NCBI GenBank assembly: GCA_963770655.1
Contig: CAVYQO010000010.1
Location: forward strand, 58,651 to 122,650
Reading direction: 5' to 3'
DNA from: an uncultured Chloroflexia bacterium
GTDB taxonomy: Bacteria > Chloroflexota > Anaerolineae > Anaerolineales > UBA4823
DNA length: 64,000 nucleotides
Shown here in pieces: positions 26,740 to 53,293 of the stretch; the first letter of the stretch is position 1; the number at the start of each line of letters is the position of its first letter. The translations under genes and the position numbers were made by a program. The notes under the pieces were generated by a model. That model saw only the letters and a list, made by a program, of their open reading frames with translations. It ran no database searches and was not told the origin of the DNA.

Positions 26740-26749
26740 AGGTTCGGTA

Positions 26750-26775: not shown

Positions 26776-26813
26776 TATGGATGACCCGATAACTCCTTAC
26801 GGATAACTAATCC

Positions 26814-28010: not shown

Positions 28011-28047
28011 GATTCTCTCCTATTTTGATAATGGATTGGCTCCAAGG

Positions 28048-29169: not shown

Positions 29170-29208
29170 GTTAGTGCTCCTTTACGAATAGTTTGTGTAG
29201 TAAAAAAT

Positions 29209-30221: not shown

Positions 30222-30257
30222 CGTTACCTCATTCCGGTCGGTGCTGACGGCGTGCGC

Positions 30258-31301: not shown

Positions 31302-31328
31302 GATAATTCTCCTTTTATGTTTTGGACT

Positions 31329-31344
31329 ATGCACACGTGTGCAT
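31329..31344. promoter_or_regulatory. 16-nt perfect palindrome ATGCACACGTGTGCAT (candidate LacI-family operator)
   Basis: Lies 28 nt upstream of the dehydrogenase start. It has a central CG, as LacI-type operators do. The same 14-mer core occurs at 38687-38700. Confidence 0.5.
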
Positions 31345-31361
31345 AAAATTCAAAAAATATA

Positions 31362-32474
31362 TCAACGTTGAATTCTAGCCGAGCTGCCTTTGGCGAGCGC
31401 TCGCACCTGATCCAGAGTAGCCATGGTGGTGTCGCCGGGGAAGGTGGTCAGCAGCGCACCATGCGCCCAGCCCAGGTTCACAGACTCCTGCTCCGGCTCG
31501 CCGCTCAACAAGCCAAAGAAAAATCCAGCAGCAAACCCATCCCCACCGCCGACGCGATCGTACACATCCAGCTCGCAGGTGGGCGATACAAACGTCTTTC
31601 CATCGATCCAGGCCACCGCGCCCCAACTGTGGCGATTGGTGGAGTGGACCTCGCGCAGCGTGGTGGCCACAATTTTGACCTGCGGAAATTTCTTCACGAC
31701 GGTATCGATCATCCCAAAGAACGCGCTCGGATTAAGTTTTGATTTGGCGGCGACTTCGGGCTCAGTGATGCCCAGGCCCAACTGCAGGTCTTCCTCGTTG
31801 CCGACGAGCACATCCACGTTCTGCACAATCCGCTGGATGACTGCCTGGGCTCGCTCTGCCCCGCCCCATATATTCCACAGCTTGGCGCGATAATTCAGGT
31901 CGAATGAGACCACGGCGCCGGCGGCTTTGGCGGCCTGCATGCCTTCGATGATGAGCTCGCCGGTGGTTTCAGAGAGTGAGGCGAAGATGCCGCCGCTGTG
32001 GAACCAGCGCACGCCGGAAAGGATTGCCTCCCAGTCGAAATCTCCCGGTTTGAGTTGGGCAGCGGCTTCGTTGGCGCGGTTGTAAAAGACTACCGGGGCG
32101 CGCACGCCATAACCGCGATCGCTGTAGATGGTGGCCATGTTGGGCCCATTGACGCCGTTGTGCTTGAAGGTTTTATAAAAGGGGGTAATCCCCATCAGGC
32201 GCACTCGTTCAGCGATCAGCTCACCAATGGGATATTCGACCATCGCCGAGACGAGACCGGTGCGCAGCCGGAAGCAGTTGGATAGGTTAGCAGCCACATT
32301 GTACTCGCCGCCGCTGGGATGAATCTGCCACTCGATGGCTTTACTGAAGGGGAGCACGCCCGAATCGACGCGGTGGTTGAGCGCTCCTAGTGAAACGAAG
32401 TCCAGCGGGGGCGCCTGTAGGTGAAGACCTGTGGGTCTACCCTCTGCGGGTTTGATATTTAAACCGTACTGCAT
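31362..32474 (-). CDS. PfkB-family sugar(-acid) kinase (KdgK-like)
   Basis: GGEYNVAANL near the N-terminus. The C-terminal motif DRVGGGDGFAAGFFFG is the PfkB signature. Confidence 0.8.
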   Translation of the reverse strand: MQYGLNIKPAEGRPTGLHLQAPPLDFVSLGALNHRVDSGVLPFSKAIEWQIHPSGGEYNVAANLSNCFRLRTGLVSAMVEYPIGELIAERVRLMGITPFYKTFKHNGVNGPNMATIYSDRGYGVRAPVVFYNRANEAAAQLKPGDFDWEAILSGVRWFHSGGIFASLSETTGELIIEGMQAAKAAGAVVSFDLNYRAKLWNIWGGAERAQAVIQRIVQNVDVLVGNEEDLQLGLGITEPEVAAKSKLNPSAFFGMIDTVVKKFPQVKIVATTLREVHSTNRHSWGAVAWIDGKTFVSPTCELDVYDRVGGGDGFAAGFFFGLLSGEPEQESVNLGWAHGALLTTFPGDTTMATLDQVRALAKGSSARIQR

Positions 32475-32496
32475 AGCTGCTCCTTATCGTGATGTT

Positions 32497-33900
32497 TCAC
32501 TGCCAGTCCGTGTGGAAAGTGCCCGGTCCGTCGATACGGCGGTAAGTATGGGCGCCAAAATAATCGCGTTGGGCCTGGGTCAGGTTAGCAGGCAGGCGCT
32601 CGCTGCGATATGCGTCAAAATAGGCCAGCGAGGCGGAGGTTGCCAGCATCGGGATGCCCAGTCCAATCCCAAGCTGCGCCACCCTGCGCCAGGCAGGTGC
32701 GCAGTCGGTAACGGCCTGACGCAGGGCGTCGTCTAACAGCAAGCTTGGCAGCTTGGGGCTGCGCTCGAAGGCTGCCATAATTTCTCTAAGCAGGCCGGCG
32801 CGGATGATGCATCCGGCGCGCCAGATGCGGGCAATTCGCGCAAAGTTCAGGTTGTAACCATATTCCTGCGAGGCCAGCCTGAGCAGCCCAAATCCCTGAG
32901 CATAGGCAGTGATCTTACTTGCATAGAGGGCCTGCCAGGCAAGATCAGCCAGGCGCTGGCGATCGCAGGCGAACGAAGAGATTTCCCCGCCTAGCACGCG
33001 GCTGGCGGTCGTGCGCTCCGCCTTAAGGCTCGAAAGCAGGCGGCTTTCAACCGCAGCGTTGATCGTGGGGATCGGCGCGCCCAGGTCGAGGGCGTTTTGG
33101 CTGGCCCATTTGCCCGTGCCTTTCTGTGCGGCTTCGTCCAGGATCATATCTACCAGCGACTGACCAGATTGCTCGTCCTGGCGTTGGAGGATATGGGCGG
33201 TAATCTCAATCAGGTAGGATTTCAGCTCGCTGTTGTTCCATTCGGAGAACACACCGGCTAGCTCTGTATTGGAAAACCCCGCCCCGCGGTGCAGGAGATC
33301 GTAGATTTCGGCGATTAACTGCATATCTGCGTATTCAATGCCGTTATGCACCATTTTGACATAATGCCCTGCGCCGCGCGGTCCCATATAGGCGACGCAT
33401 GGCTCGCCGCTCGCCTGGGCGGCGATCTTTTCAAAAATGGGTTTGACCAATTCCCAGGCTTCCGGCTGCCCGCCGGGCATAATGGCGGGTCCACGCAGCG
33501 CGCCTTCTTCGCCGCCCGACACGCCCATACCGATGAAATGGAAACCTTCGGACTCGAGGGCCTGGCTGCGTCGTTCGGTGTCCATAAAATACGAGTTGCC
33601 GCCGTCGATCAAGATGTCGCCAGGCGCAAGGAGTGGCGTCAGCAGGGCGATTGCGCTGTCCACCGCTGCTCCTGCCGGAACCATGAGCAGCAGGCGACGC
33701 GGCTTTTCGAGTAAATTGATCAGCTCGACAGCCGAGTCAGCCCCGCTGATGTTCTTACCGGCGCCAGAGCTCTCCAGAAATAACTTGGTCTTAGCCGCAT
33801 CGAGATCGTAGCCAGCCACCGAAAAGCCATTGCGCTCCATATTCAGCGCAAGATTGTGACCCATCACCCCCAAACCGACAACCCCAATTTTATAAGCCAT
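32497..33900 (-). CDS. gnd: 6-phosphogluconate dehydrogenase (decarboxylating)
   Basis: The ATG at 33900 is 6 nt after GGAGGA. Motifs KIGVVGLGVMGHNLALN, GMGVSGGEEGA, HNGIEYADMQLI, and a C-terminal RDYFGAHTY. Confidence 0.9.
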   Translation of the reverse strand: MAYKIGVVGLGVMGHNLALNMERNGFSVAGYDLDAAKTKLFLESSGAGKNISGADSAVELINLLEKPRRLLLMVPAGAAVDSAIALLTPLLAPGDILIDGGNSYFMDTERRSQALESEGFHFIGMGVSGGEEGALRGPAIMPGGQPEAWELVKPIFEKIAAQASGEPCVAYMGPRGAGHYVKMVHNGIEYADMQLIAEIYDLLHRGAGFSNTELAGVFSEWNNSELKSYLIEITAHILQRQDEQSGQSLVDMILDEAAQKGTGKWASQNALDLGAPIPTINAAVESRLLSSLKAERTTASRVLGGEISSFACDRQRLADLAWQALYASKITAYAQGFGLLRLASQEYGYNLNFARIARIWRAGCIIRAGLLREIMAAFERSPKLPSLLLDDALRQAVTDCAPAWRRVAQLGIGLGIPMLATSASLAYFDAYRSERLPANLTQAQRDYFGAHTYRRIDGPGTFHTDWQ

Positions 33901-35239
33901 CCTGTCCTCCTGGGCGATCACGGTGGGGCGGACCTATTTGTCCTCCCTCCATCTGGATACGATACAACATTTCGCCGGCGCGCGGTACAAAGAGAATATT
34001 TTCGCTTTCTCTGTTTTTCCATTGGTCGATATTGATTTCCGCAGGATCGAGATAACCGAGGTTAAGCGCGGCGCAATCCTCAGCACAAATTTTGCTGGCC
34101 AGAGTCACTTTCACATTTGGCTTCTCGATCCCGTTTTCCATGACGCCTGAGCCGCGCAGATGGGTACTATGGGCAAGCACTCCGAGCGGAATGTGCTTGA
34201 AGCGCTCCCAGTTGTCCAAAAAATAGGGCAGGATGTGATAACCAATCTCATAGATATATTTACCGTGGACGCGGCTGACGATATCCAGGTGAGGTGCATA
34301 AATAATGACCTCGCCTCCTATGGCGACCGCGGGCTCGAGTTTATACATGGCTTTGGCGGCCGTCCACAGTTCGGTATACATCGGCGGCGCACAGGAAAGG
34401 ACACGCTGATAAGGTTCCTGACACCACTGGATGTGGCATTGTGCGGAGAGGTCAGCCGCCGTGCTCCAGGAAGAGTGAATATCGCCGATGAACAAACCGC
34501 AGATATCATCGTCGACCACCGTCATTGCAACCAGGGTGATCGGGGTGGAGAGGAGTTTTGCTGCAGCGTGGATCATCGCCCGCACCGGTGTTGTCTTGAT
34601 CCCAATCGTTTGGGCAGCGCCCGTCAAGGCTCCCAACCAATGGGTGGCATGGATCATTTCCGGGCCGGAGATGCCAGGAAAGAGATATTTTGCCCCGCCT
34701 GAGAATCCAGCTACCTCATGCGGGAATGTCGGCGCCAGGATCACGATCGCATCGTAGGCAAGGGCGGCTTTGTTAATCCGCACCGGAATGCTGTTCGGTA
34801 AGGAAGGATGCCAAAAATCTCCGGCAATTGCTCGGATTTCATCCTGCTCGATGCACCCAAGCGTCGCCAGGGCTGCAGGATTATCCCATTCATGTTCGAA
34901 GAGTCCGATATTTTTATAGGTCGACTGCCGTTCATCTACACGGATGCCAACCAACTGATTGAGGCCTTCTTCACCCAACGCTGGGTGCGTTCCCAGAGCG
35001 ACCATGAAATCAATTTGTCGGGGCACAAACCCAGGTTTGCCCTCGGTGAGGATCTCCACAAGCGTCCGAAATAAGAACGGGAGCGGTAAGGAACGCGTGT
35101 GGTCAGGAATGAGCACCAGGATTCTTTCCCCGGAAAAATTACCCGCGAGACCATTTTCGAGAGTCTCGCGAAGTACCTCATTGGTGAGTGGGGGCGGAAC
35201 TGCGTGTCTGCTCATCCTGGCGATGGTCTCGGTGTTCAT
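33890..35239 (-). CDS. LarA-family (nickel-pincer cofactor dependent) 2-hydroxyacid racemase/epimerase homolog
   Basis: PDHTR, ALGTHP, PHEVAGFSGGAKYLFPG (cofactor-tethering Lys context) and IHATHW are the hallmark LarA residues as I remember them. Start is taken at the ATG at 35239 after AAGGGA. Confidence 0.75.
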   Translation of the reverse strand: MNTETIARMSRHAVPPPLTNEVLRETLENGLAGNFSGERILVLIPDHTRSLPLPFLFRTLVEILTEGKPGFVPRQIDFMVALGTHPALGEEGLNQLVGIRVDERQSTYKNIGLFEHEWDNPAALATLGCIEQDEIRAIAGDFWHPSLPNSIPVRINKAALAYDAIVILAPTFPHEVAGFSGGAKYLFPGISGPEMIHATHWLGALTGAAQTIGIKTTPVRAMIHAAAKLLSTPITLVAMTVVDDDICGLFIGDIHSSWSTAADLSAQCHIQWCQEPYQRVLSCAPPMYTELWTAAKAMYKLEPAVAIGGEVIIYAPHLDIVSRVHGKYIYEIGYHILPYFLDNWERFKHIPLGVLAHSTHLRGSGVMENGIEKPNVKVTLASKICAEDCAALNLGYLDPAEINIDQWKNRESENILFVPRAGEMLYRIQMEGGQIGPPHRDRPGGQDGL

Positions 35240-35247
35240 AGAATCCC

Positions 35248-36079
35248 TTATACTCCGCTGAAAGCCGAGAAACCGCCATCGACAGGGACAACAATGCCGG
35301 TGACAAAACCCGCCGCAGGCGATACCAGCCAAAGCATTGCCCCAAGCAGGTCATCCGGAACCCCAAAGCGCGCCATCGGGGTGTGAGAAAGGATCGAATT
35401 CTCCGCGCGGGGTGAGCGAGCCGTCCTCATTCAGAAGCAGTTTTTGATTTTGCTCGCCGACGAAAAACCCAGGCGCAATGGCATTGACCCGGATCTCCGC
35501 CGAATACGTTTGGGCCAGGTGGACGGCCAGCCAGGCGGTGAAATTGCTGACTCCTGCTTTTGCTGCGGAGTATGCCGGAATTCGGGTCAGCGGCCGGAGG
35601 GCATTCATCGATGAAATATTAAGGATGACGCCGTGCTTTTGCTGGGCCATAATTTTCCCAAAAACCTGTGACGGTAAAATCGTTCCCATCAAGTTCAGGT
35701 CAAAGACCCAGCGTAAGGCTTCGGCTGGCAGGTCAAAGAAACTCTGCTCGGGGTTGGTGGTGGCTTGCGCTTTGTTTCCACCAGCACCGTTGATGAGAAT
35801 ATCTACGCTCCCAAATTTTGCCAATACTTCTTGTGCAGCGTTTTCGATGCTCGAAATATCGAGGACATCGCAGCGCACGCTGACAGCCTCCCCTCCGCTG
35901 GAGCGGATAGCCCCGGCGAGCTGTTCGGCGGCTGTGGGATTGATATCGAGAATAGCAACTTTTGCGCCGGCATCCGCCAGGGCGCAGCACATCGCCGCAC
36001 ACAACACACCTGCCCCGCCGGTAACAACAGCGGTCTTGCCGGAAATGGCGAAGTTTGGTTGGAGGGAGGTGTTTGTCAT
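35248..36079 (-). CDS. SDR oxidoreductase (UxuB/mannonate-fructuronate reductase-like), one frameshift near 35403-35412
   Basis: [17 protein letters not shown]. The true C-terminus ([51 protein letters not shown]) lies in the other frame (track ORF 35248..35430). Confidence 0.8.
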
Positions 36080-36136
36080 TTTTGCTTTCCAGGTCGCTGC
36101 GATGCGATATCGATCTTTCGGCGGTATTTGCTCGCT

Positions 36137-37517
36137 CTACTCAACAAATGGTTTTAAATGACGGATAAAATGGCTGGCGAGGTTCTCGGCATAGGCTTCG
36201 GAGTTGGCGCGCAGGATGGCAATGAAGCGATCGTAGAAACGAAACCGCCCGTCGTTAGTCTTATCGGTCAGCACCGAGCCAAAGGCAACGTGCAGGATTT
36301 CGCGGGCGTGGAAATCATTCAGCAACAGTGGCAGGTCTTGATCCTTGGGCAAACCATCTTTTCCGATGGAGAGACCGGCTCCAACCTTGTCGATTTCTGC
36401 CGAGACGTGATAACTGGCTTTGTCGACGGCGTAGCGCTGGAGAGAATAAAGATAAATCTGGCGGAAGAGTTCAACATCAACAGCGGCGATGGTGCGCAGG
36501 GCCTCGAGGTAGCTGGTGCCGGCGGTCTTGAGATGCGCCTTTTTTCGAGAAAGCCGGGCCGCGATTGGATAAATGCTGAATTTGTCCGAGCCGGAGTGCA
36601 GGCTAAGCTTATATCCGCCGAAGCGGCGGGCGATCGCCGCGTGACCGGCGAAATCAGATTCGAATTCTTCAAGGCTGCCGATATAATCGACGCCTTTTTC
36701 GAAACGCCCAACATAGCGCGGCGCAAGGCTGACCCAAATCCACGCCGAGCCGCTCCAGCTCGCTGGCGATGTAGATATGCTCGGCGTGCGAAGTAGGCTG
36801 CTCGGTTTCATCGACGGAGACTTCAAGTTCAAAAGGACGATCTCCGGCAATCTCTGCCAGGTGATGATACATTAAGGCGACCTGGGCAATTGCTCTGCCA
36901 TATTTGACAGCGGTCCTGGTCAGGGTGATCTCGTCGAAATGGATTTTCAACCCTTCGATATCAAAATTTTTACCGGATAATCCACTGGCGCTCGGGCGAA
37001 TTGTTCCAGGCAGCGCCTGGGCAAGCTCACGGAGCTCGCCAGGACTGGCGGTTTGGGCGCGGAGATCCACCTGTGCACCCGGGTCGATGGTAAAGAAGGT
37101 AAACCCGGCGGCCAGGCAGAGATCGATATCAGCAGGCGTCTTGAGATGATCGGCATCCGCACCGACGCCTTCACGCCAGCCTTCCTGGAAAATGCCCCAA
37201 GTAGCGTCATCCATCACCTGTTGGGGTGTGCGTTCGGTGCGCGCCATCTCGCGCATGGACTGCTGGGCAAAGATGGGGGCGATGCCGCCCACAGCCCTGA
37301 CTGCGCGAACATGCCCGGGTGTGGCAAGACCGATCCGATCGCCCATACCGGCTGAGGCGCGTTTCTCCAACAATCGCGGGCGGAGCCAATCTAATTGGGT
37401 GCGTAACCCGGCAGCATTTTTAGGGCTGAGCGGGCCGACCAGCAGCGTCCTACCTTCAAATTCGGAGCATTTCCCCTCGAAAGTGTTGAGTGTCGATGAT
37501 TGTGAAGCTGCTAACAC
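36137..37517 (-). CDS. tagaturonate/fructuronate epimerase (UxaE-like), one frameshift at the CCC run 36733-36735
   Basis: Two overlapping track ORFs (36669..37517 and 36137..36850). Motifs GDRIGLATPGH, GADADHLK, LSLHSGSDKFSIYP. The junction is ...ELERLGVD | VSLAPRYVGRFEKGVDYIG. Confidence 0.7.
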
Positions 37518-37650: not shown

Positions 37651-38676
37651 TTAATCCAGGCGTGGGGACGCAGTTGATTCGCGCACCAACAAACGGCCCT
37701 TCAAAGTTTGGCTCTTGCGCACCGGCGCTTGATTCTCCGGGTTGCTTTTCAACAAATCCAGGACCAACCGTGCTGCTTCTGCGCCGATATAGTTTTTAGG
37801 CTGGTCAAATGTGGTTAACGGAGGATTGGTGTATGCAGAAAAAACGATGTTGTCAAATCCGGTCACCGAGCATTCTTCCGGAACCTGGATACCCGCCAGT
37901 TGAAGACCCTTGAGCGCGCCGATCGCCATCATATCGTTGAAACACACCAAGGCTGTTGGGCGGTGGGCCAGGCCGAGAAAATAATCCAGACCGGCCTGAC
38001 CATTCTCTGGGCCGCCACCTGGGATTTGGTGGATGTTTTCGGCTGGGACTGGTAATCCGGCTGCCTGCATTTCCGCCTGGAAACCGAATAAGCGATCCAG
38101 CGTCGTCCGTCCGGAGAGGGAATTGCCCAGGTAAGCAATCCGCTGGTGACCCAGATCGATTAAATGCCGCGTGATTTGCCGGCAGCCGTCCTCGTCATCG
38201 TGGTAGATCGAGTAGCGATATTCTTCAGCGGCCTGGTTGTTAATCACCACGATGGGAGCGCCATGATCCAGGAGCTGCTGGCTTTGACTGGAACTGAATG
38301 AAGTCGAACAGATAATGACCCCGTCGACGCGATGTTCGCGCATCGCCTCGACGACCGAGCGATCACGCTCGCTATCATCCTGCGACGAAGAAATAAATAT
38401 GCTGTAGCCCTCGTGCTGAGCCACATCTTCAATCCCCTGCAGGATTTCACTGAAGAAGGGGTCATCGATGTTGCGGACAACAACGCCAAGCGCTTTGGTT
38501 TGATGGGTTTTAAGGCTGCGTGCGGCAGCGCTGGGGTGATAGCCCATTTCCCGGGCAACCTGACGCACGCGCGCAGAGGTCTCATCCGAGATCAGCGGGT
38601 TGCCTCGCAGCGCCCGGGAGACAGTGGAGTGAGAAACCTCAGCTCGTTTGGCAACATCTTTGATGGTAGTCGGCAT
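37651..38676 (-). CDS. LacI-family transcriptional regulator
   Basis: N-terminal helix-turn-helix (TIKDVAKRAEVSHSTVSRALRG) plus a periplasmic-binding-protein-like core. Confidence 0.9.
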   Translation of the reverse strand: MPTTIKDVAKRAEVSHSTVSRALRGNPLISDETSARVRQVAREMGYHPSAAARSLKTHQTKALGVVVRNIDDPFFSEILQGIEDVAQHEGYSIFISSSQDDSERDRSVVEAMREHRVDGVIICSTSFSSSQSQQLLDHGAPIVVINNQAAEEYRYSIYHDDEDGCRQITRHLIDLGHQRIAYLGNSLSGRTTLDRLFGFQAEMQAAGLPVPAENIHQIPGGGPENGQAGLDYFLGLAHRPTALVCFNDMMAIGALKGLQLAGIQVPEECSVTGFDNIVFSAYTNPPLTTFDQPKNYIGAEAARLVLDLLKSNPENQAPVRKSQTLKGRLLVRESTASPRLD

Positions 38677-38790: not shown

Positions 38791-38848
38791 ATACAAATGA
38801 AAGTAAACTTTCAAATTTTATTATTTTGTTGACCTGGTAGGAGGCTTG

Positions 38849-39601
38849 ATGAGTAGCACTACGAATATTTCTGATATCCAAGCCATTTTTTTAGATGTTG
38901 GCAACACGCTGCGGATCGTCGTCAGAGATGAAGGCTTTATGGCCAATTCAAAACGGCAGATGGTGAAGCTGACCGGGGCGCAGATGCCCCCCGAAGATTT
39001 TTTTGATTTTCTCGAAGCCCGCTACCAGGTTCTGCGCAAGCGGGCCAAACAGCAGTTGATCGAGGCTTCCGAGTTGGAGATGTGGACCCAGTGGATGCTT
39101 CCGGATTTTCCCGTTGATAAAGTCGCCCCATTCTCTGGAAAGCTGACCCGCCTGTGGCGTGATTGCGATGGCCGCCGGGTGCCGCGACCCGATGTTTGCA
39201 AAGTGGTCCTTGAGCTGAGCGACCGCGGCTACCTGTTGGGGATTATCGCCAATACCATCACGGAAACCGAGATCCCTGACTGGCTGGAAGCGGATCATCT
39301 GACGGATTATTTTAAGACAGTTGTCCTTTCATCGAAACTCGGTATCAGAAAACCGAACCCGGAGATTTACTGGGAATCGGCACGCCGGATTGGCGTGGAT
39401 CCGACAAAATGCGTTTACGTTGGCGATAACCTGGTCCGCGATGTGGAGGGCACCCAGGCGGCTGGTTTTGGCATGTCGATTATTCTATTAGAACCGGATA
39501 CCCTTAAAAAGGAGCCGCCAAGGGAAGATGTAAAACCCGACCGGATCATTTATGAGCTGAGCGAGCTCCTGGACATTTTCCCGCCCCGGCCACAAGTGTG
39601 A
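38849..39601 (+). CDS. HAD-superfamily hydrolase (motif I DVGNT, no Asp at +2)
   Basis: The ATG at 38849 follows GGTAGGAGG. Motifs IFLDVGNTL, IIANT, SSKLGIRKPNPEIY, VGDNLVRDVEG. Confidence 0.8.
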   Translation: MSSTTNISDIQAIFLDVGNTLRIVVRDEGFMANSKRQMVKLTGAQMPPEDFFDFLEARYQVLRKRAKQQLIEASELEMWTQWMLPDFPVDKVAPFSGKLTRLWRDCDGRRVPRPDVCKVVLELSDRGYLLGIIANTITETEIPDWLEADHLTDYFKTVVLSSKLGIRKPNPEIYWESARRIGVDPTKCVYVGDNLVRDVEGTQAAGFGMSIILLEPDTLKKEPPREDVKPDRIIYELSELLDIFPPRPQV

Positions 39602-41218
39602 CAGTGATCTCGATCGTCAACGCTCATCGGGCGCGAACTGGTACCGCAATCGCCGAGACTGTCCGGGCGATGTACCACGAAGGGGGTACGGATTACTCGC
39701 TTGAACCCATTGTCGTTGCCTCACCCCAAGGAAAACCGATCGGCCGGATTAAAGACGGCGATGCTGTTGTTTTTTGCTGCCGGCGCGGTGAGCGTGAGAT
39801 TCAACTCACAGAGGCATTCGCCGACCCAAATTTCGAGCACTTCCCGCGGGCCGATTTTCACCAGCTTGATTTTGTCATCCTGACCCTCTACCACGACAAG
39901 TTCAAAGACCTACCGGTAGCTTTTGCGCCAGCTAAGGTCAACGACACCCTGGGCGAAATCGTTAGCCGCGCCGGTCTCCGCCAGGCGCGCATCGCCGAGT
40001 CTGAGAAGTTCGCCCATGTCACCTTCTTTTTCAACGGCGGTAACAACCAGCCCTTCCCCGGCGAGGAGGGATATAGATATCCCATCCCCCAAAGGCATTC
40101 CTTATGACCAGGTTCCTGAGCTTAGCCTGGCGCAGGTAACTGAACAGGTTCGCAATGCAATGGATAAGCACTTCGACCTGATCGTGGTTAACTTTGCTAA
40201 TGGCGACGTCATCGGGCACACCTCAAATAGGGAGGCCAAGATCAAATGCGCTGAGGCAGTGGATGAGAATCTTGGAAAGGTCGTCCAGGCTGCCCGCGCC
40301 GCTGGCTATGTCGTTCTGGTTACTGCTGACCATGGAAACCTTGAAGAATTGACCACTGCGGAAGGATCGCCGCATGTCTCCCATACGACCAATCAGGTGC
40401 CGTTCATCTTGATTGATCCGCTCCAGGGTCCTCCCTTCTCTGTGCAGAACGGCAGCCTGGCCGACATCGCTCCAACGGTGCTCGCTGCGCTGCAGCTTGA
40501 ACAGCCGCTGTCCATGATTGGCAACAATCTGGCTCCCGGTCACGATTGGGGAGATAGGCGCCGCGTCCTGCTCGTGATCCTCGATGGTTGGGGGCTCGGC
40601 CGCCAGGATGTTACGAATCCGATCTTCATCGCCCATACCCCGGTGTGGGATGATCTGCTGGCCCAGGCTCCCAACTCTCAACTGATTGCCGCAGGCGAGG
40701 CAGTAGGCTTGAAATCGGGCAAGGCTGGTAATTCCGAAGCCGGGCATATGAACATCGGCGCCGGTCGCGTTGTTCTCCAGGATGATGTGCGCCTGGATCA
40801 GGCAATGCAGGATGGTTCGTTTTATTCAAACGAGATCCTGTGCGGCGTAAGCGAAGGCGTCCGCCAGCGAAAAACAAACCTGCACCTGATTGGGCTGCTT
40901 ACCGAAAAAAGCTCCCACGGCTCGATCGAGTATCCGCTGGCGTTATTGCGCATTGCTAAGAAAGCTGGATTAAAGGATGTGTATCTACATCTGATTTTCG
41001 ATGGACGGAGCACCGAGCCGGGTAGCGCACCGCTGCTGCTGGAAACGCTGGAGGAACAGCTAGATGCAATTGGCCTGGGTCAGATTGTTTCCGGGATGGG
41101 TAGGGCGATTGCCCTCGATCGGGATGGCAATTATGCCAGGACCCGCCGCGCCTATGATGCGTTGGTATTCGGCGAGGGAAGGAAATGCGTTATAGAAGGA
41201 GTTATCCGTGATTGGTAA
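39598..41218 (+). CDS. cofactor-independent phosphoglycerate mutase homolog, circularly permuted domain order, one frameshift near 40063-40070
   Basis: First half: AESEKFAHVTFFFNGG, IPSPKGIPYD, VNFANGDVIGHTS, TADHGNLEE, SHTTNQVPFIL, LADIAPTVL. Second half: VLLVILDGWG, GKAGNSEAGHMNIGAGR, LIGLLTEKSSHGS, IFDGRSTEP, GRAIALDRDGNY..YDALVFGEG. The start GTG overlaps the upstream stop (GTGTGA). Confidence 0.75.
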
Positions 41219-41348: not shown

Positions 41349-42551
41349 ATGACGGACACAATCTTGCTGAACAACCCAGAAGCCTTTTCGGAGGCGCTGT
41401 ACGAAAAGATGAAGTCGATCACTACTGGGATCGAGGAGCTTGAGCTTTACGAATTTCGTTACGGGCTGACTGACTTGCTTCCCGACCAGGGTTGGGAAGC
41501 CATAAGACTGGATCCCCAGGTAGAAATCGAAGCGCGGGTAAATCGGCGTGAATTCTATGACGGAATTCAGCTCAAGCCGAGGCTCAATGGGAGGATCGTC
41601 TTGGATCCTGAGATTGTCCGCTTGACACAGATGCTCTTCGTTGGATTGGTCAAAGGGGAATATGCCCCAGACTGGATCAGGACGCATTTTTATTTTGATA
41701 TCCGGGGATTTTATTTCCTACACCGTACGAATTATTTTACGGAGCGAGTGCTTGCACATTTTGGCGGCGAGCCGTATTTAAGCTTTGAGCGTAAGCAAAT
41801 CGAGTTCGAGCGAGTGCAGGATCTCGGTTATAAAGCCTTCAGGGAAGCCAACCTCGCCGTGGATGTGTTTTTCATTGAGAGTGTATTGAAACTCATGGGC
41901 GGATATACAGGTACGCCCCTACTCATTGCCATCGCCGGGCCAACTGCCGCTGGAAAGACCGAGATCGTTGAGCGCTTGAGCGCTGCAATCGTTCAATCAG
42001 GCAGGAAAGTCGCCTCGATTGAGTTGGACAATTTCCTGACAGACCGGGACTACCGTGAGGAGCAGGGTATCAACTCACAGGGTAAGGCAGCCTTACATTT
42101 CGAGCTCATGAAACAGGCTCTGGAAGACATTACCTGCGGAAAGAGGATCACCATCCCACGCTACGATTTTGTTTATGCCACTTCCAGCCACGACCTGGCC
42201 GGGCATTTGAAAGCCGATGGCGTACCGATAGAAATCGAGCCTGCTGACATTGTTTTCATCGAAGGGAATTTCCCTTTCTTGCTCAAGGAGATCGTCCACC
42301 TGATCGGGATTAAGGTTGTGTATCTCACCGATGATCCCATCCGGATGAAGCGAAAATGGAAACGCGATATCGACTATCGCAAGAAATATGATCCGACGTA
42401 TTTCCGCAACCGCTATTTCAAAGACCAGTTCATCATGGCCCAAATCGCTTATCACCCCCAGATGGAAGTCTGCGATATGATCATCGATACGACCGGCGCA
42501 GCAGTCTGGTTAGTCCCCGAATTCAGGAAGTTAGTGGTGAGTGGGGAGTGA
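41349..42551 (+). CDS. Udk/PRK-family P-loop kinase with an unassigned N-terminal domain of about 190 aa (paralog 1)
   Basis: C-terminal half: LLIAIAGPTAAGKTEIVERL, IELDNF, IPRYDF, IVFIEGNFPF, and RKWKRDIDYRKKYDP, which is shared with paralog 2 and not a motif I recognise from Udk/PRK enzymes. The N-terminal half has no motif I recognise. Confidence 0.7.
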   Translation: MTDTILLNNPEAFSEALYEKMKSITTGIEELELYEFRYGLTDLLPDQGWEAIRLDPQVEIEARVNRREFYDGIQLKPRLNGRIVLDPEIVRLTQMLFVGLVKGEYAPDWIRTHFYFDIRGFYFLHRTNYFTERVLAHFGGEPYLSFERKQIEFERVQDLGYKAFREANLAVDVFFIESVLKLMGGYTGTPLLIAIAGPTAAGKTEIVERLSAAIVQSGRKVASIELDNFLTDRDYREEQGINSQGKAALHFELMKQALEDITCGKRITIPRYDFVYATSSHDLAGHLKADGVPIEIEPADIVFIEGNFPFLLKEIVHLIGIKVVYLTDDPIRMKRKWKRDIDYRKKYDPTYFRNRYFKDQFIMAQIAYHPQMEVCDMIIDTTGAAVWLVPEFRKLVVSGE

Positions 42552-42677: not shown

Positions 42678-43883
42678 ATGGCGAGCACAAACAGGCTGAA
42701 CACTCCAGAAGATTTTTCCAGGACGTTATTTGAGATCATGAAAGACTTGAATCCAGGGATCGCCGATCTGGATCTGATTGAATTCCGTTATGCGCTTGAA
42801 AATCTTCTTCCTGAGGAAGGTTGGGCAATCACCCAGGATTGCCCAACCGAAAGCGAGGAAAAGATCGCTGAGCTGATCCACAGCCGGGATTTCTATGAAA
42901 GTATCCAGCTAAAGCCTCGAGTGGGCGATAGGATCGTCCTGGATAACAAAATTGCCAGGCTGACCCAGGATCTTTTTGTCGGCCTGGCCAAAGGCGCCTA
43001 TACCACCGAATGGGTCAACGCGCACTTTTATTTCGATATCCGCGGGTTTATCTTTCTACCTCGGACGGTTTATTTTACAGACGAAGTGCTGGCCCACTTT
43101 GGGGGAAACACGCCAGGCGTCCCATACCTGAGTTTCGAGAAACGGCAAACGCGTTTGGAACGCTTTCAAGGCGTCGGTTACAAAGATTTCAGCGAGGCTA
43201 ATGCAGAGGTTGACCAGGCATTTATTGAGAGCGTTAAGAAAATCATCGCCTTTCGGGGAACGCCTATACTGATCACGCTCGCCGGACCGACAGCCGCGGG
43301 AAAAACCGAGATCACTGAACGCTTGTTTAACGAGTTCGAAATGTCGGGCAGGCGCATAACCACAATTGAGGTGGATAATTTTCTGCTCGATCGGGAAATT
43401 CGGGAAGACAAGGTAATGGGAAAAGAAACTACCCACTTTGATATCTTCGTACACTGCATCGAAGAGATCTTGCAGGGGAGGAAAGTTCTTATTCCACGAT
43501 ATGACTTCGTGAACGCCACCTCCAGTCACGATGTGAACAGCCGCTTAAGACCGGGATGCGTCCCCCTGGAGATCGAGCCGGCTGATATTATTTTCATGGA
43601 GGGCAATTTCCCTTTCCATATCGAAGAAATTGCCAGGCTGATCGGGATTAAAATTGTATATCTTAGCGATGACCCGATTCGACTCAAAAGGAAGTGGAAA
43701 CGCGATATCGACTACCGCAAGAAATATGACCCGGCCTACTTTCGCAACCGCTTTTTCCGGACGCAGTTTTTGAGAGCTGAGGATATTTATCGACCCCTCA
43801 TGCAGGTGTGTGAGATGGTTGTGGATACAACCAATGCCGCCTTGTGGGCGACAGCCGAGATCGTAAATATTATCGAAAAATGA
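42678..43883 (+). CDS. Udk/PRK-family P-loop kinase with an unassigned N-terminal domain (paralog 2)
   Basis: Colinear with 41349..42551, with more than half the residues identical by eye. Motifs ILITLAGPTAAGKTEITERL, IEVDNF, IPRYDF, IIFMEGNFPF, RKWKRDIDYRKKYDP. Confidence 0.7.
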   Translation: MASTNRLNTPEDFSRTLFEIMKDLNPGIADLDLIEFRYALENLLPEEGWAITQDCPTESEEKIAELIHSRDFYESIQLKPRVGDRIVLDNKIARLTQDLFVGLAKGAYTTEWVNAHFYFDIRGFIFLPRTVYFTDEVLAHFGGNTPGVPYLSFEKRQTRLERFQGVGYKDFSEANAEVDQAFIESVKKIIAFRGTPILITLAGPTAAGKTEITERLFNEFEMSGRRITTIEVDNFLLDREIREDKVMGKETTHFDIFVHCIEEILQGRKVLIPRYDFVNATSSHDVNSRLRPGCVPLEIEPADIIFMEGNFPFHIEEIARLIGIKIVYLSDDPIRLKRKWKRDIDYRKKYDPAYFRNRFFRTQFLRAEDIYRPLMQVCEMVVDTTNAALWATAEIVNIIEK

Positions 43884-44022: not shown

Positions 44023-44892
44023 ATGAATTCACAGGATTTCAATCAAATAATTAGTGAAAAGTATGGCCAATTCACCAAAGGTGAAAAGCAAATTGCGAAT
44101 TATCTACGCCGAAACCAGGACGAGGTCGCTTTCCTTTCCGTAGGTGAGTTTGCAGACAGGCTTGGGCTGAGCGAGGCAACCTTGGTCCGGTTTGCACGCA
44201 AGCTGGGTTTTGATAGCTACCCGGCGATGCGTGAGGCGCTGCAGGAGAATTTTCGCCGCCGGGTCGGCCATTCAGCCAGGCTGCGCAACCGCTTGGACGA
44301 TTTACGTGAAGGGGGGGATATCTTCGAAAAAGTAACCGTGGCGGAAATTGACTATCTGACCGAGGCCCTTCAAACCGTTGATCGGGCGGCTTTGGATCTT
44401 GCGGTAATAAAGATGATCGCTTGCGATCACATTTATGTCTTTGGTACGGGGCCATCCATTTCTTTGGTTCACCTCCTCAATCTTCGCCTTACCCGCTTCG
44501 GCAAACAGGTCATTCCCTTAACTTTAACCGGACGAGAAACCTTGGAGCCTTTGCTGTTGATGACCGAGCGAGATCTTTTGTTTGCTATCGGTTTTTTTGA
44601 TATTAACCCTGCCCTGCAAGTTGTTCTGGACTTTGCCAGGGAGGTGAACTGCCCGGCGATCTTGCTCACCGACACCCTGGGTTCAGTGGTTGGCGAGAAG
44701 GTGGATATTGTCCTGGCTGCCAAGCGTGGGCCGGTTTCGGCATTTCATTCTCTTGTGGTCCCGATGACGATTATTAATACACTGCTTCTGGAGATTGCTA
44801 ATAAAAATCAAGAAGTTGTAACGAACAATCTGGACACGCTGGATCAATTACGAGAACGACTTAAGAAAACGAATGGTTTAAGTAGGTCATAA
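44023..44892 (+). CDS. RpiR/MurR-family transcriptional regulator (HTH + SIS domain)
   Basis: FTKGEKQIANYLRRN...SVGEFADRLGLSEATLVRFARKLGF, followed by a SIS fold (IYVFGTGPS). Confidence 0.85.
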   Translation: MNSQDFNQIISEKYGQFTKGEKQIANYLRRNQDEVAFLSVGEFADRLGLSEATLVRFARKLGFDSYPAMREALQENFRRRVGHSARLRNRLDDLREGGDIFEKVTVAEIDYLTEALQTVDRAALDLAVIKMIACDHIYVFGTGPSISLVHLLNLRLTRFGKQVIPLTLTGRETLEPLLLMTERDLLFAIGFFDINPALQVVLDFAREVNCPAILLTDTLGSVVGEKVDIVLAAKRGPVSAFHSLVVPMTIINTLLLEIANKNQEVVTNNLDTLDQLRERLKKTNGLSRS

Positions 44893-44918
44893 GGTTCCCC
44901 GCAATCAGGAGTAGGTCG

Positions 44919-46766
44919 ATGGCAAATGCTCATGCTGTAGCGCCTCAAGCACAGCTTCCAAGATCACAGCGAATTCAAGCGTCATTCAGGCGTTTTTTCC
45001 GTTGGTTGAGCAACCCGCATGTTTTCCTGGGTCTGATCATGCTGGCGCTGATGGGTTACATGGTCATTGTCCCGCTTTACCGGATGCTGATGACCACGAT
45101 CACCTACTCTGAAAATGATCTGCGCTATGCCAGAGATGCAGTCGTTGGGGAATTCACGCCTTTCCACTGGCTGAGGATGCTGACCACCAAGATTGGGATG
45201 GTGATGACCCTCGAGCCGCTGCTGCATTCCATAACGATCTCGCTGGGCGCCACGTTCATGGCTTTCGTCATCGGCGGGTCGCTTGCCTGGCTGGTGATTC
45301 GCACGGATCTACCGGGCCGTAATCTGATCAATGTCCTGGCGGTGATCCCGTACATTATGCCATCCTGGACGATTGCGATGGCCTGGAAAGTGATGTTCAA
45401 TAACGGGACCACGGGGGGGATACCTGGGATGTTGATGTATTGGACGGGGACGCCGCCGCCGGATTGGCTGGCTTATGGCCCCATCCCGATTATCATCAGC
45501 AGCGGACTGCATTACTATACATTCTTTTATTTGTTTGTTTCGGCAGCTTTGATCTCGATTGACTCCAGCCTGGAAGAAGCCGGTGAATTAGCCGGGGCCA
45601 GCCGGGTGCGGATCCTGTCTAAGATCACTTTTCCGCTGGTCATTCCCGCTTTGCTGTCCGGTTTTATCATGACCTTTTCAAAGGTCATGGGCACGTATGG
45701 CGGCCCGAATGTGTTGGGTGTACCGGTGCGCTACTATACCGTCTCGACCATGATCCGCTCAAATATTGCGGTCGGCGCTTTCGGGGATGCCTTCGTGCTG
45801 GCGATCACCCTGATCCTTTTTTCGATGACTACGATTTATATCAATCAAAGGATTGTCGGCACCAGGAAAAGCTACGAGACGATCGGCGGACGCGGTTTCA
45901 TGGCTCAGAAAACGAAGCTTCGCGATATGAGATATATCATCGCTGCGTCGGTGATCACATTTCAAGTGCTGGTGGCAACCGGACCGCTGATCCTGCTGAC
46001 CTGGAGCACGTTGATGCTCAAATCCGGCGATTACAGCCTGAGCAATTTAAGCCTGGTGCATTGGATTGGGAAGAGCAATATCCGCATCAACAGCGGCGAA
46101 CCGGGCATTTTGCGTAACCCGGCGATTTATAGAGCGGCCTGGAATACGATCAAACTGGCCGTGATGACCGCGTTTTTCACGGCGCTGCTTGGAATTGTCC
46201 TTGGCTACTCGATTGTGAAAGGTCGCGGCACGCGCCTGGCGAGAATCACCGAACAACTTGCCTTCATCCCCTACGTAATCCCGGGGATTGCCTTCGGCGC
46301 CGTTTACATCACGATGTTTTCGAAACCGGTAGGGCCGATCCCGCCGCTCTACGGCACATTTGCGCTGCTGGTAGTTGTCTCGGTGGCCAAGCATATTCCT
46401 TATTCCTCTCGCAGCGGCGTCTCGGCCATGCTCCAGGTCGGGCGAGAGCTCGAGGAGGCTGCGGCGTTGGCCGGGGCGAATAGCTGGAGACGCTTCCGCA
46501 GGATCATCTTTCCACTCACCAGCGCTGGTTTTGTCTCCGGGTTCCTGCTGACCTTCATCACCACCATGCGGGAGCTATCCCTGATCATTTTGCTTGTCAC
46601 GCCAGCTACCGCGGTTCTCTCCAGCCTGACCATGCGCTACAGTGAGAATGGGAATGAACAGCAGGCGAATGCGGTCATTATCCTTCTGATTGCGCTTGTT
46701 CTGATCGGACAGCTTATTATCAGCCGCTTCAGCGGCGGCAGCTTGAAAAAAGGTCTTGGAGGTTAG
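44919..46766 (+). CDS. ABC importer permease, duplicated (12-TM) FbpB/ThiP-type
   Basis: Two EAA loops: LEEAGELAGASRVRILSKITFPL and LEEAAALAGANSWRRFRRIIFPL. 615 aa. Confidence 0.85.
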   Translation: MANAHAVAPQAQLPRSQRIQASFRRFFRWLSNPHVFLGLIMLALMGYMVIVPLYRMLMTTITYSENDLRYARDAVVGEFTPFHWLRMLTTKIGMVMTLEPLLHSITISLGATFMAFVIGGSLAWLVIRTDLPGRNLINVLAVIPYIMPSWTIAMAWKVMFNNGTTGGIPGMLMYWTGTPPPDWLAYGPIPIIISSGLHYYTFFYLFVSAALISIDSSLEEAGELAGASRVRILSKITFPLVIPALLSGFIMTFSKVMGTYGGPNVLGVPVRYYTVSTMIRSNIAVGAFGDAFVLAITLILFSMTTIYINQRIVGTRKSYETIGGRGFMAQKTKLRDMRYIIAASVITFQVLVATGPLILLTWSTLMLKSGDYSLSNLSLVHWIGKSNIRINSGEPGILRNPAIYRAAWNTIKLAVMTAFFTALLGIVLGYSIVKGRGTRLARITEQLAFIPYVIPGIAFGAVYITMFSKPVGPIPPLYGTFALLVVVSVAKHIPYSSRSGVSAMLQVGRELEEAAALAGANSWRRFRRIIFPLTSAGFVSGFLLTFITTMRELSLIILLVTPATAVLSSLTMRYSENGNEQQANAVIILLIALVLIGQLIISRFSGGSLKKGLGG

Positions 46767-46774
46767 GGAAACTT

Positions 46775-47863
46775 ATGGCGACAACGATCACCATTAAAAA
46801 TTTGACCAAGCGTTTCGGCAACGTCGTGGCGGTAAATAACATCAGCTTGACGATCGAACCGGGCTCTTTTCTAACCCTGCTGGGACCTTCGGGCTGCGGA
46901 AAGACAACTCTGCTGCGCTGCATCGCCGGGTTGGAGGATCCCGATGATGGTGAAATCTACGTCGGCGATAAGGTTGTATATTCGCGACAGCGTGGAATTT
47001 CGATCCCCTCGGGTCAGCGCGACCTTGGAATGGTGTTTCAGAATTATGCCTTGTGGCCGCACATGACCGTTCATAAAAATATCACCTTTGCACTTGAAAT
47101 CAAAAAAATGACTAAGGCGCAGATGGATGAAAGGGTTAAGGAAGCGCTGGCCGAAGTGCAGATGGATGGCTACGCGGACCGCTACCCCCGCGAAATGAGC
47201 GGTGGGCAGCAGCAGCGCGTCGCCCTGGCTCGCATGCTGGCCTATCGCCCTAAGGTGTTCTTGATGGACGAGCCGCTATCCAACCTGGATGCCCGCTTGC
47301 GCATGGACATGCGCAGTGAGCTCAAGCGCCTGCACCATATTTCTGGCGCAACGACGATTTATGTGACCCACGATCAGCTAGAAGCATTGACCATGTCTTC
47401 AAGCATCGCGGTGATGAAGTTAGGCGTCATCCAACAATTGGATGCCCCTGACCGCATCTACCACTTCCCAGCCAATTTGTTTGTTGCGGATTTCATTGGC
47501 AATCCCAAAGTAAATTTAATGAACGGCGTGGTCAAGGGCGAAAATTTGGTTGACCTCGGAAAGTTTGATATTCCGTTAACAACACACGGTGTGACTGGAG
47601 AAGTGGTCGTGGCGGTTCGCCCTGAGGATATCAGTATTTCAACCGAGCCTATTGCCGGTGCGGTTGAATTCAGCGCCTATGCCGTGCTTCCTTCCGGAGC
47701 AAACTCGACGATTATTGCCCACCGGGATAAATTGGAACTCACTATTAAAGTGATGGGCATCAGTAAAATTGCGATGGATCAAAAAATCTGGCTGAGATTT
47801 GATCCTGATTGTTTGAACATCTACAATAAAGAAAGTGGAAATCTGGTGGTGTCATGCAATTAA
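46775..47863 (+). CDS. ABC importer ATPase (PotA/FbpC/MalK-type)
   Basis: GPSGCGKTT, MSGGQQQRVALARML, FLMDEPLSNLD, and a C-terminal TOBE-like regulatory domain. Confidence 0.9.
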   Translation: MATTITIKNLTKRFGNVVAVNNISLTIEPGSFLTLLGPSGCGKTTLLRCIAGLEDPDDGEIYVGDKVVYSRQRGISIPSGQRDLGMVFQNYALWPHMTVHKNITFALEIKKMTKAQMDERVKEALAEVQMDGYADRYPREMSGGQQQRVALARMLAYRPKVFLMDEPLSNLDARLRMDMRSELKRLHHISGATTIYVTHDQLEALTMSSSIAVMKLGVIQQLDAPDRIYHFPANLFVADFIGNPKVNLMNGVVKGENLVDLGKFDIPLTTHGVTGEVVVAVRPEDISISTEPIAGAVEFSAYAVLPSGANSTIIAHRDKLELTIKVMGISKIAMDQKIWLRFDPDCLNIYNKESGNLVVSCN

Positions 47864-47983
47864 AGGATGAACAAAGCTCAGCTCAAAATTGTTATCAAGG
47901 AGGCTGCATGGGATAAACCCTTTGAGAAATGTAAAAAGTGATCGTTCATGTGATTGACTCAATCATCAAGAAGGAGAAATGAA

Positions 47984-49249
47984 ATGAAAAATTTCGGTAA
48001 GTTATTGACCCTCGTGATTTTAATCTGCTTCCTGGCCGGCTGTGCAACTCCCGCACCGACAGCCGCCCCGGTAACGCAGCCGGCAGCAGCCGAGCCGGAA
48101 AACCGGCCGACACTGCCGTTCCAGCGCCGACAGAAGTCCCCCCCACTGAAGCGCCCGCTTTGACGCCAAAGGAAGAATGGCTGAAAGCGAACCAGCTTGG
48201 CACTTATACTTCCGATACCCAGGACTGGGCTGCGATCGAAGAAGCTGCCAAGAAGGAAGGAAAAGTAATCGTTTATGCCAACTCTTCCAAGATTGCCAAT
48301 GCAGCCGAGATTTGGGCGGAGAAATACCCGGACATCGCCATAGAAGGATATGATCTGGGCGGCGACGATGTGCTTTCTAAGACTATCGGAGAGCAGGAAT
48401 CGGGCCTGGTCGTTGGCGACGTTTGGTTCAGCAGCGGCGGCGCTGAAGTCGTCGGCAATGTTCTGCCAAAAGAATATGTCTGGCGCTTCATACCGGATAG
48501 CGTATCTGTATCTCCCGAATATACGGAGCCACTATTGATGTCCCGACTTGGAACGACAATATTGGCTTATAACTCGGAGCTAAACGAAAAATGCCCGGTG
48601 ACCAACCTTTGGGAATTAACCCAACCGGAATGGAAAGGCAAGTTTGTCATCGAGGATCCGCTAAATGACGCCTCCACGCTGAGCAAACTGCTCACCATTG
48701 TTTACCACGCTGATGAAATGAAGCAAGCGTATATCGATCTCTACGGGTCCGAACCAGTACTGGATGCCGATACCCCGGACGCTGGCTGGTTGTGGCTTAA
48801 GAAGTTTGCTCAGAACGCCCCCATCCCGCAGCCAGGCGGCGATGAAGTCGAACTCAGCCTTTGCCGCCCCAGGGATGAAAGATAGTCTGCTTGCCTTTAC
48901 CTCGTACTCGAACTACCCCGATGTTCAAGATGGCAACCTGGCCTTTGAGCCATGCTGGGGCGTTACGCCGATCAGCGGTATTCAGGCGCAAAGCTACCTG
49001 GGCGTCATGAACCAGGCGCCGCACCCGAACGCGGCTAAGTTGTTTATTAAGTTCATCACGAGTGCAGACGGGCGCGATCCCTGGGCTAAATTTGGCACCT
49101 ATTTCCCCGACCCAACTTATGAAGTGCCGGAAGGCCAATTGACCCTGGATGAAGTGCAGAAATTGACCTGGTTTATTCCGGAGCAATTTGCCTACGATAA
49201 TCTCGTTCAGGCTCGCGACTTTTATTTGTTGAACTTGGGTACACCGTAA
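47984..49249 (+). CDS. ABC importer substrate-binding lipoprotein, two frameshifts (48099-48102 and about 48841-48860)
   Basis: MKNFGKLLTLVILICFLAGC lipobox, then a Pro/Ala/Thr linker. The three track ORFs 47954..48163, 48160..48885 and 48764..49249 join into one family-1 solute-binding protein. The first break is an A4 run that needs A5. Confidence 0.75.
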
Positions 49250-49285: not shown

Positions 49286-49403
49286 CAGCCTGGGCATAGC
49301 AGCGACCCATGTCCAGGCTGCGCCGCCGCAAGCGCGATAAATCGATCGAACCAAAACGAAACCATAGGGGCGCACGTAGTGCAAGCAGCACGTAGTGCGC
49401 CCC
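49286..49403 (+). other. two strong hairpins in a 226-nt intra-cluster spacer
   Basis: First hairpin, 49286-49320: CAGCCTGGGCAT / ATGTCCAGGCTG, 12 bp with 1 mismatch. Second hairpin, 49367-49403: GGGGCGCAC-GTA-GTGC-AAGCA-GCAC-GTA-GTGCGCCCC. Confidence 0.6.
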
Positions 49404-49475
49404 TACAGAGAGAACGCATGGACAAGGATGGTCCTCGCGTATAGTGGAGTATTCTCTCGGCAAGGAGGCAGTCGT

Positions 49476-50913: not shown

Positions 50914-50937
50914 TTGCTATTGGGAAAAATTTACCAA

Positions 50938-53283: not shown

Positions 53284-53293
53284 GAAAAGGTCA

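Follow-up and report, generated by a model that had tools for sequence, protein, structure and literature searches.

A natural circular permutation of the cofactor-independent phosphoglycerate mutase fold in a conserved Anaerolineae operon

We analysed a 64,000-nucleotide stretch of DNA (hereafter, the window) from an uncultured Chloroflexia bacterium (GTDB lineage Anaerolineae; Anaerolineales; UBA4823), positions 58,651 to 122,650 of contig CAVYQO010000010.1 in assembly GCA_963770655.1. At positions 39598-41218 on the plus strand of the window lies a gene of the cofactor-independent phosphoglycerate mutase (iPGM) family, which after repair of the reading frame encodes one protein of about 539 aa. 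An earlier note on this DNA had proposed that the two halves of iPGM are swapped here within one reading unit, and this is what we found: the gene encodes a genuinely circularly permuted iPGM. As that note also stated, its GTG start codon (39598) shares letters with the TGA stop (39599-39601) of an upstream HAD-family gene, which can be read directly from the window letters.

The gene is spread over two overlapping open reading frames (ORFs), 39598-40107 in frame 1 and 39923-41218 in frame 2. Read as 39598-40068 followed directly by 40070-41218, they yield 539 aa, the length of one iPGM, in agreement with the earlier note. Homologous genes read GGC GAG GAG GAT GTx (G-E-E-D-V) at the junction; the window reads GGCGAGGAGGGAT, with one G too many at about 40069, and in the surrounding letters GGCGAGGAGGGATATA the surplus G falls within a G run. 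There are no in-frame stops and no losses of catalytic residues on either side of the shift. The window holds other frameshifts, as had been remarked before: compared with intact homologs, six genes are frameshifted, namely IolG at ~29.4 kb, an SDR gene at ~35.4 kb, UxaE at ~36.74 kb, the permuted iPGM at ~40.07 kb, a solute-binding protein at ~48.8 kb and a HAD-HAD protein at ~49.95 kb. Six shifts in 22 kb, about one per 3.6 kb, in unrelated and otherwise well conserved genes suggest an indel-prone long-read assembly. Because five further genes at 29-51 kb are frameshifted too, we read the shift at 40069 as most likely a homopolymer sequencing error, although it could be real in this organism.

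Canonical iPGMs consist of a phosphotransferase domain inserted in an alkaline-phosphatase-like phosphatase domain; in the Geobacillus stearothermophilus enzyme the transferase domain spans residues ~77-310. A phmmer search of all PDB chains with the window protein matched canonical iPGMs only, each as two non-colinear stretches. Residues 20-311 match residues 218-508 of the G. stearothermophilus enzyme (1ejj_A, independent E-value 7e-66), and residues 320-528 match its residues 3-211 gap-free (independent E-value 2.5e-46); the whole-sequence E-value is 4.9e-115 and identity over both halves is ~42%. The profile models are likewise non-colinear: positions 64-251 of the Metalloenzyme profile (PF01676, 227.9 bits) align at residues 110-301, before positions 2-131 of iPGM_N (PF06415, 165.9 bits) at residues 400-529, both far over their gathering cut-offs, and the TIGR01307 match is split into two stretches in swapped order (sum 508.9, cut-off 330.65). 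The colinear order of phosphatase N-part, inserted transferase and phosphatase C-part is not that of the window protein, which scores 395.9 against the cut-off of 862 for the equivalog model NF003897. Nor does it belong to related families: ApgM models (TIGR00306/NF003160) give 40.2 bits against a cut-off of 320, over residues 182-274 only, and phosphopentomutase (DeoB) models give 36-38 bits against cut-offs of 254-256, over the shared metal-site region only.

The window protein thus has what defines a natural circular permutant, swapped halves in one copy with a linker. The cut site lies just behind the conserved GEG (Geobacillus residue ~211-212). Because the eight-residue joint APGHDWGD, noted earlier between the old termini, links them directly, the phosphatase domain is now contiguous (old 311-511, linker, old 1-76); it sits inside a split transferase domain, and two hinge crossings stay, hinge 2 ahead of the phosphatase domain and hinge 1 behind it. 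The domain-insertion relationship is inverted and the three-dimensional fold is probably kept. The parts of the gene and the features around it are collected in the table.

Table. Parts of the permuted iPGM gene, followed by other features of the window; residues equated with the Geobacillus enzyme carry its numbering on the right of the equals sign, and loci are the related loci described in the text.
Feature	Position	Strand	Observation
GTG start and residues 1-111: second part of phosphotransferase domain (iPGM ~212-310); R63/R66 = Arg261/Arg264; clade motif VFCCRRGER	39598-39930	+	query 20-121 matches 1ejj 218-320
Residues 112-157: hinge 2 and start of C-terminal phosphatase part, including AESEKFAHVTFF (K137 = Lys336)	39931-40068	+	PDB match, alignment
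Single surplus G, +1 frameshift	40069-40069	+	GAGGAGGGAT in window, GAGGAGGAT in homologs
Residues 158-311: remaining C-terminal phosphatase part (iPGM ~358-508); D203, H207, D244, H245, H262 = D403, H407, D444, H445, H462	40070-40531	+	
Residues 312-319: linker APGHDWGD, old C-terminus to old N-terminus	40532-40555	+	pLDDT ~92
Residues 320-393: N-terminal phosphatase part (iPGM 3-76); D329 = Asp12, S379 = Ser62 nucleophile, in GNSEAGH	40556-40777	+	
Residues 394-528: first transferase part (iPGM 77-211); H440 = His123, R470 = Arg153, S471 for Asp154, R502 = Arg185, R508 = Arg191	40778-41182	+	
Non-conserved C-terminal tail KCVIEGVIRDW and TAA stop	41183-41218	+	homologs stop 6-7 residues sooner; coil, low pLDDT
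IolO	25933-26772	-	over NCBIfam equivalog cut-off
IolM	26817-28010	-	over NCBIfam equivalog cut-off
IolN	28051-29169	-	over NCBIfam equivalog cut-off
IolG, frameshifted	29274-30221	-	over NCBIfam equivalog cut-off
LacI-family regulator, divergent	37651-38676	-	40/57 loci
HAD-family hydrolase, directly upstream of permuted iPGM	38846-39601	+	homolog directly upstream in 57/57 loci; rumen Clostridiales too
Kinase paralogs, tandem, 57% identical, ~400 aa each	41349-42551, 42678-43883	+	homolog in 48/57 loci
RpiR/SIS regulator, then ABC transporter (fused two-domain permease, ATPase, frameshifted Fe3+/AfuA-like solute-binding protein)	44023-49249	+	RpiR 48/57, ABC parts 46-49/57 loci
Frameshifted tandem HAD-HAD protein and HAD fused to xylose-isomerase-like TIM barrel (AP_endonuc_2)	49395-52611	+	
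PhoU_div (DUF47) protein and PHO4-family phosphate transporter, closing the cluster	52666-54286		
PfkB kinase after PHO4 transporter	54315-55217		

An AlphaFold2 model built from 59 family sequences is confident (predicted local distance difference test, pLDDT, 93.8; predicted template-modelling score, pTM, 0.87), including the linker block at pLDDT ~92. Foldseek with this predicted model returned canonical iPGMs only among PDB entries, at ~276 aligned columns and a TM score of 0.44, about half of the protein, which is to be expected when a sequential aligner meets a permutant; no PDB structure colinear with the permuted protein was found by this search. The two-hinge bi-domain design of iPGMs (PMC5382265) is kept in the window protein.

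The chain ends did not conform to the earlier note in one respect. It had seen the same helix at both new termini and taken this for the footprint of a duplication followed by truncation. However, the homologs end 6-7 residues short of the window protein (in ...GDGRKCAAS, GDGRKCFA and similar sequences), and in the model residues 528-531 form a strand and residues 532-539 a low-confidence coil. The sequence in question is peculiar to the tail of the window protein, which is neither conserved nor helical in the model, and we rejected the duplication footprint as unsupported. We also looked for evolutionary intermediates (C'-N-C or 1.5-copy arrangements) among the long hits P0131, P0145, P0176, P0208, P0219, P0233 and P0248, and found none, these proteins carrying extensions or a small internal repeat only.

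We compared active-site residues after re-ordering the permuted sequences canonically and aligning them to 125 canonical representatives (28 members of the window clade; Geobacillus numbering throughout). We take H123, R153, D154, R185, R191, R261, R264 and K336 to be the phosphoglycerate-binding set of the Geobacillus enzyme. H123, R185, R191, R261, R264 and K336 are invariant in all 28 clade members and R153 is found in 25/28. The metal ligands, the nucleophile and their neighbours (D12, S62, H66, D403, H407, D444, H445, H462) are invariant as well (28/28), and the window protein itself has the full set of binuclear metal ligands (D12, D403, H407, D444, H445 and H462) together with the Ser62 nucleophile. 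This ligand set agrees with that for Caenorhabditis elegans iPGM (PMC5382265).

Around this constant core, the clade departs from canonical iPGMs at positions that scarcely vary in them. D154 (D in 121/125 canonical sequences) is S in 24/28 clade members, N259 (123/125) is C in 24/28, and position 260, F or Y in 115/125, is R in 24/28. The aromatic positions 186 (Y or F, 111/125) and 187 (Y or F, 115/125) have become G or A (22/28) and I (17/28), respectively. V122 (111/125) and G121 (96/125) are both replaced by S in 28/28, and D263 (121/125) by E in 26/28. On balance, an acidic residue is lost, an arginine is gained beside R261, and two aromatics are lost. We infer from these replacements that the clade pocket may have been reshaped to take a substrate that is larger, more anionic or both.

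The permuted protein is widespread. We searched 5.8 billion proteins and examined the best 120 hits, which are 68-78% identical to the window protein, mostly ~528 aa long (nearly all 526-548) and aligned colinearly in one piece over 94-98% of the query; by local blastp against the two Geobacillus halves, 120/120 are permuted. We also scanned GTDB, with a single genome for each species, for the clade motifs [IV]FCCRRGER and ...ESEK[FY]; this confirmed at least 596 relatives among the 599 genome stretches listed, and the best 80 of these loci are without exception full-length and colinear (80/80). Precomputed Pfam annotations of the orthologs give the order iPGM_N-Metalloenzyme-iPGM_N. Almost all of the loci come from metagenome-assembled genomes (MAGs) of Anaerolineae (Chloroflexota) produced by many projects, the closed chromosomes CP070811.1 and OY969578.1 included, and the cultured Levilinea saccharolytica KIBI-1 carries a permuted ortholog in its isolate genome (contig NZ_LGCM01000037.1; L029 10001-11572). 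A few Bacillota/Clostridiales rumen MAGs have one too (58-62% identity).

These orthologs bear on two ways in which the locus itself could mislead. Two tandem copies mimic a permutation when read from the middle of the first to the middle of the second, and collapsed tandem gpmI copies or a mis-join would look much like the gene described here. Since many independent genomes share the permuted order, misassembly is excluded: hundreds of assemblies from different projects and technologies, an isolate genome and closed MAG chromosomes among them, agree on one ~528-aa colinear protein, on where it starts and stops and on its neighbours, and its termini abut or overlap flanking genes. We regard this explanation as refuted, with practically no probability left to it. 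The alternative that the shift at 40069 is real and the gene a pseudogene decaying in this organism draws on the ORF split by a frameshift and on the several frameshifted neighbours, but no in-frame stop interrupts the gene, and no catalytic residue has been lost before or after the shift. The shift is a single base within a G run; six shifts in 22 kb of unrelated conserved genes are the pattern of long-read indels, and the closest relatives are long-read MAGs. Decay of the locus is improbable in our view, and the gene is no isolated remnant; it is a real, conserved operon gene with many orthologs.

Permutation of iPGM extends beyond the window clade. An exhaustive survey of 50%-identity representatives added full-length permuted proteins of 38-62% identity (P0121, P0123, P0124, P0126-P0130, P0133, P0135, P0136, P0139, P0153, P0157 and P0188), which interleave with canonical iPGMs in the score ranking. 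In two neighbor-joining analyses of 'un-permuted' alignments (200 bootstraps each), the window clade was recovered in 196/200 replicates (98%) both times. The small permuted lineages with canonical motifs did not join it: monophyly of all permuted sequences was recovered in 0-1/200. No split that would demonstrate separate origins did better than 46/200, either. All permuted lineages have a common cut site and a linker of 8-11 aa. Three small lineages, P0157 with P0300-P0302, P0133 with P0299, and P0129, resemble the window clade in the cut after GEG and in a linker of 9-11 aa. In contrast to it, they keep GVHS, DGRD and GRYYAMDRD and the canonical residues at the clade-replaced positions, and they are 46-53% identical to Geobacillus iPGM and 38-44% to the window protein. 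Their contexts are housekeeping ones: P0157 (L004 8001-9626) overlaps the gene for glucose-6-phosphate isomerase (PGI), and P0133 lies at L088 4041-5585. The P0157 lineage is tiny, and its next-best relatives are canonical iPGMs at ~50% identity. The same permutation may have arisen repeatedly as iPGMs evolved.

For gene context we used the 57 related loci that span 15 kb or more. We found no housekeeping or glycolytic setting at the locus; the conserved operon lies under LacI and combines HAD phosphatases, usually ApgM, with a kinase, the RpiR regulator and the ABC transporter. Counting the upstream HAD gene, the window cluster has at least four HAD domains. An ApgM-like mutase is present in 47/57 loci, normally directly downstream of the permuted gene, and its score of 545.6 lies above the cut-off (468) of the NCBIfam equivalog model for archaeal-type phosphoglycerate mutase (PGM). 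The window and its closest relative (L008) have no ApgM and carry two kinase paralogs instead. Both of these kinases join a C-terminal PRK/uridine-kinase domain to an uncharacterised N-terminal region of ~190 aa, for which no Pfam or PDB match was found; the rest matches the generic uridine-kinase/PRK domain only. The similarity of the solute-binding protein to Fe3+-binding proteins and AfuA in the PDB is weak and not diagnostic. Scans for promoters, terminators and operators at the locus gave chance-level results, and a search for a riboswitch or other RNA hinting at a ligand found only a distant tRNA.

Rumen Clostridiales loci follow this pattern: LacI and four HAD genes accompany the permuted iPGM, together with a PfkB kinase. 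The setting varies among more distant clade members. At L006/L007 (8001-15038), a 50%-identical clade member (P0123/P0279 cluster) adjoins GDPD (glycerophosphodiester phosphodiesterase) and the same fused-permease type of ABC transporter. In the P0130 group the permuted gene stands alone.

On the other side of LacI, the minus strand of the window carries, within 25930-37517, a complete Thermotoga-type myo-inositol set (IolO, IolM, IolN and IolG). After these genes come a second Zn-ADH, a KDG-kinase-like PfkB, Gnd, a LarA-family putative hexonate epimerase, D-mannonate oxidoreductase and UxaE. Iol or hexuronate genes lie at most 10 kb from the permuted gene in 34/57 loci.

Because the metal ligands and the Ser nucleophile are intact, metal-dependent phosphomutase action through a phosphoserine intermediate has most likely been kept. 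The phosphate of a substrate hydroxyl would move onto the serine, the substrate would reorient in the transferase domain, and the phosphate would be returned to a neighbouring hydroxyl. As for the substrate, we lean slightly towards a phosphoester larger or more anionic than 2- or 3-phosphoglycerate (2PG/3PG), for example an inositol phosphate or a phosphorylated sugar acid, because near-invariant residues are replaced and because the gene sits in a LacI/RpiR operon with HADs, usually ApgM, kinases and an organophosphate-type ABC transporter, often beside inositol or hexuronate genes. A more specific proposal is offered as a tentative one: the clade marked by FCCRRGER might be a new enzyme that shifts phosphate from one hydroxyl to another on an inositol phosphate or on a phosphorylated hexonate/hexuronate. 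It would act with the ApgM-type mutase, HADs and PRK-like kinases in a module that follows an organophosphate ABC importer and feeds the Thermotoga-type myo-inositol pathway. Overall, we consider it likely that the gene encodes a permuted iPGM-family phosphomutase, probably with a substrate other than or besides 2PG/3PG, and that its frameshift is an error. The earlier name, phosphoglycerate mutase, is uncertain as to function, given the remodelled residues, the non-glycolytic operon and the usual ApgM-type PGM next door.

An ordinary glycolytic 2PG/3PG mutase, permuted in chain order and unchanged in function, would explain why all catalytic residues and 7/8 of the presumed substrate-binding residues (D154 being Ser) are conserved in the window protein, why the summed TIGR01307 score of 508.9 exceeds 330.65, and how other permuted lineages can be fully canonical in their motifs, with P0157 overlapping the glucose-6-phosphate isomerase gene; permutation is evidently compatible with glycolysis. 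The window also lacks an ApgM-like gene, so that the permuted enzyme could be the sole nearby PGM here. All this weighs against a shifted substrate, as do some weaknesses in the case for it. The roles we assign to D154, N259, F260 and Y186 are presumed from the Geobacillus structures together with conservation, and the inositol link is one of adjacency and may be synteny inherited within one bacterial class. Even so, a glycolytic mutase is out of place in an operon that is LacI/RpiR-regulated and catabolic or transport-related, it would be redundant with the equivalog-level ApgM PGM encoded by the next gene in 47/57 loci if both were PGMs, and it leaves the clade-specific swaps at near-invariant positions without a reason. 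We find an unchanged function, the main rival reading, doubtful. A phosphatase, or a phosphotransferase to another acceptor, would be one more phosphate remover beside the HADs; the alkaline-phosphatase-type core is intact, the changes concentrate in the substrate-reorienting transferase domain, and the operon is rich in phosphatases. However, conservation extends over the entire transferase domain with its arginine cluster, which a simple phosphatase should not need, and there is little chance, in our estimate, that the enzyme has ceased to be an intramolecular mutase. The permuted phosphomutase with a probably shifted substrate is the reading we prefer.

The closest known system is canonical GpmI/iPGM (PDB 1EJJ, 1O98, 2IFY, 4MY4, 5KGN; PF01676 and PF06415; TIGR01307), which shares with the window protein the two domains, the metal site, the Ser nucleophile, the Arg/Lys cluster and the length. 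The window protein differs from it in the permutation itself, with a contiguous phosphatase and a split transferase domain, in the changes D154S, N259C, F260R, Y186G/A and V122S, and in its non-glycolytic context. ApgM (PDB 2ZKT, 3IDD; PF10143; NF003160) is likewise of the alkaline-phosphatase superfamily, shares metal-dependent mutase chemistry and is the gene neighbour in most related loci, but its models match the window protein weakly and in part, its cap domain differs, and it is unpermuted relative to its own family. Natural circular permutants include concanavalin A/favin, swaposins, some DNA methyltransferases and glucanases, which keep one fold with swapped halves, a short linker and new termini in a surface loop. 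In the family described here, by comparison, the permutation crosses two domains, inverts which of them is the insert and marks a large clade with its own operon.

The earlier note did not recall any description of a permuted iPGM. This holds for the full-text literature searched, in which we found none; there is also no dedicated Pfam or NCBIfam model and no PDB structure. The proteins themselves are already in databases, labelled automatically as iPGM (JGI) or hypothetical protein (NCBI MAG), and metabolic reconstructions of Anaerolineae that rely on such gpmI or hypothetical labels may mis-assign the glycolytic PGM step. Among two-domain enzymes iPGM is a textbook example, and it serves as a drug target in both parasites and bacteria. 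A natural family of this size with an inverted domain insertion would be a clean case for studying the origin of circular permutation, how domains that close about hinges cope with a rewired chain, and how permutation may accompany a change of function. With its many phosphatases, two mutases, novel kinases and organophosphate-type transporter beside inositol genes, the operon could mark an uncharacterised pathway by which organic phosphorus or inositol phosphate is turned over in soils and in digesters. If the enzyme were an inositol phosphate or hexonate mutase, soil and sludge Anaerolineae would gain an unrecognised route to environmental inositol phosphates.

Two unusual gene products were seen among the permuted proteins. 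P0079 (935 aa; JGI, on a 20.7-kb contig) joins a permuted iPGM and the ApgM-type mutase that follows it into one predicted chain, which reflects either a true fusion or a lost stop codon. P0221 (5027 aa) contains a complete permuted iPGM unit at residues 3852-4372 of a giant prediction, probably a gene-calling artefact (stop read-through). Finally, we compared the window with its closest relative, L008 (CAVZGO010000007.1). Some flanking genes are 86-95% identical (IolM 94%, IolN 95%, HAD 90%, RpiR 90%, permease 87%), whereas identity drops to 70-74% for the permuted iPGM and for both kinases. This mosaic divergence hints that the segment may have undergone recombination or replacement.

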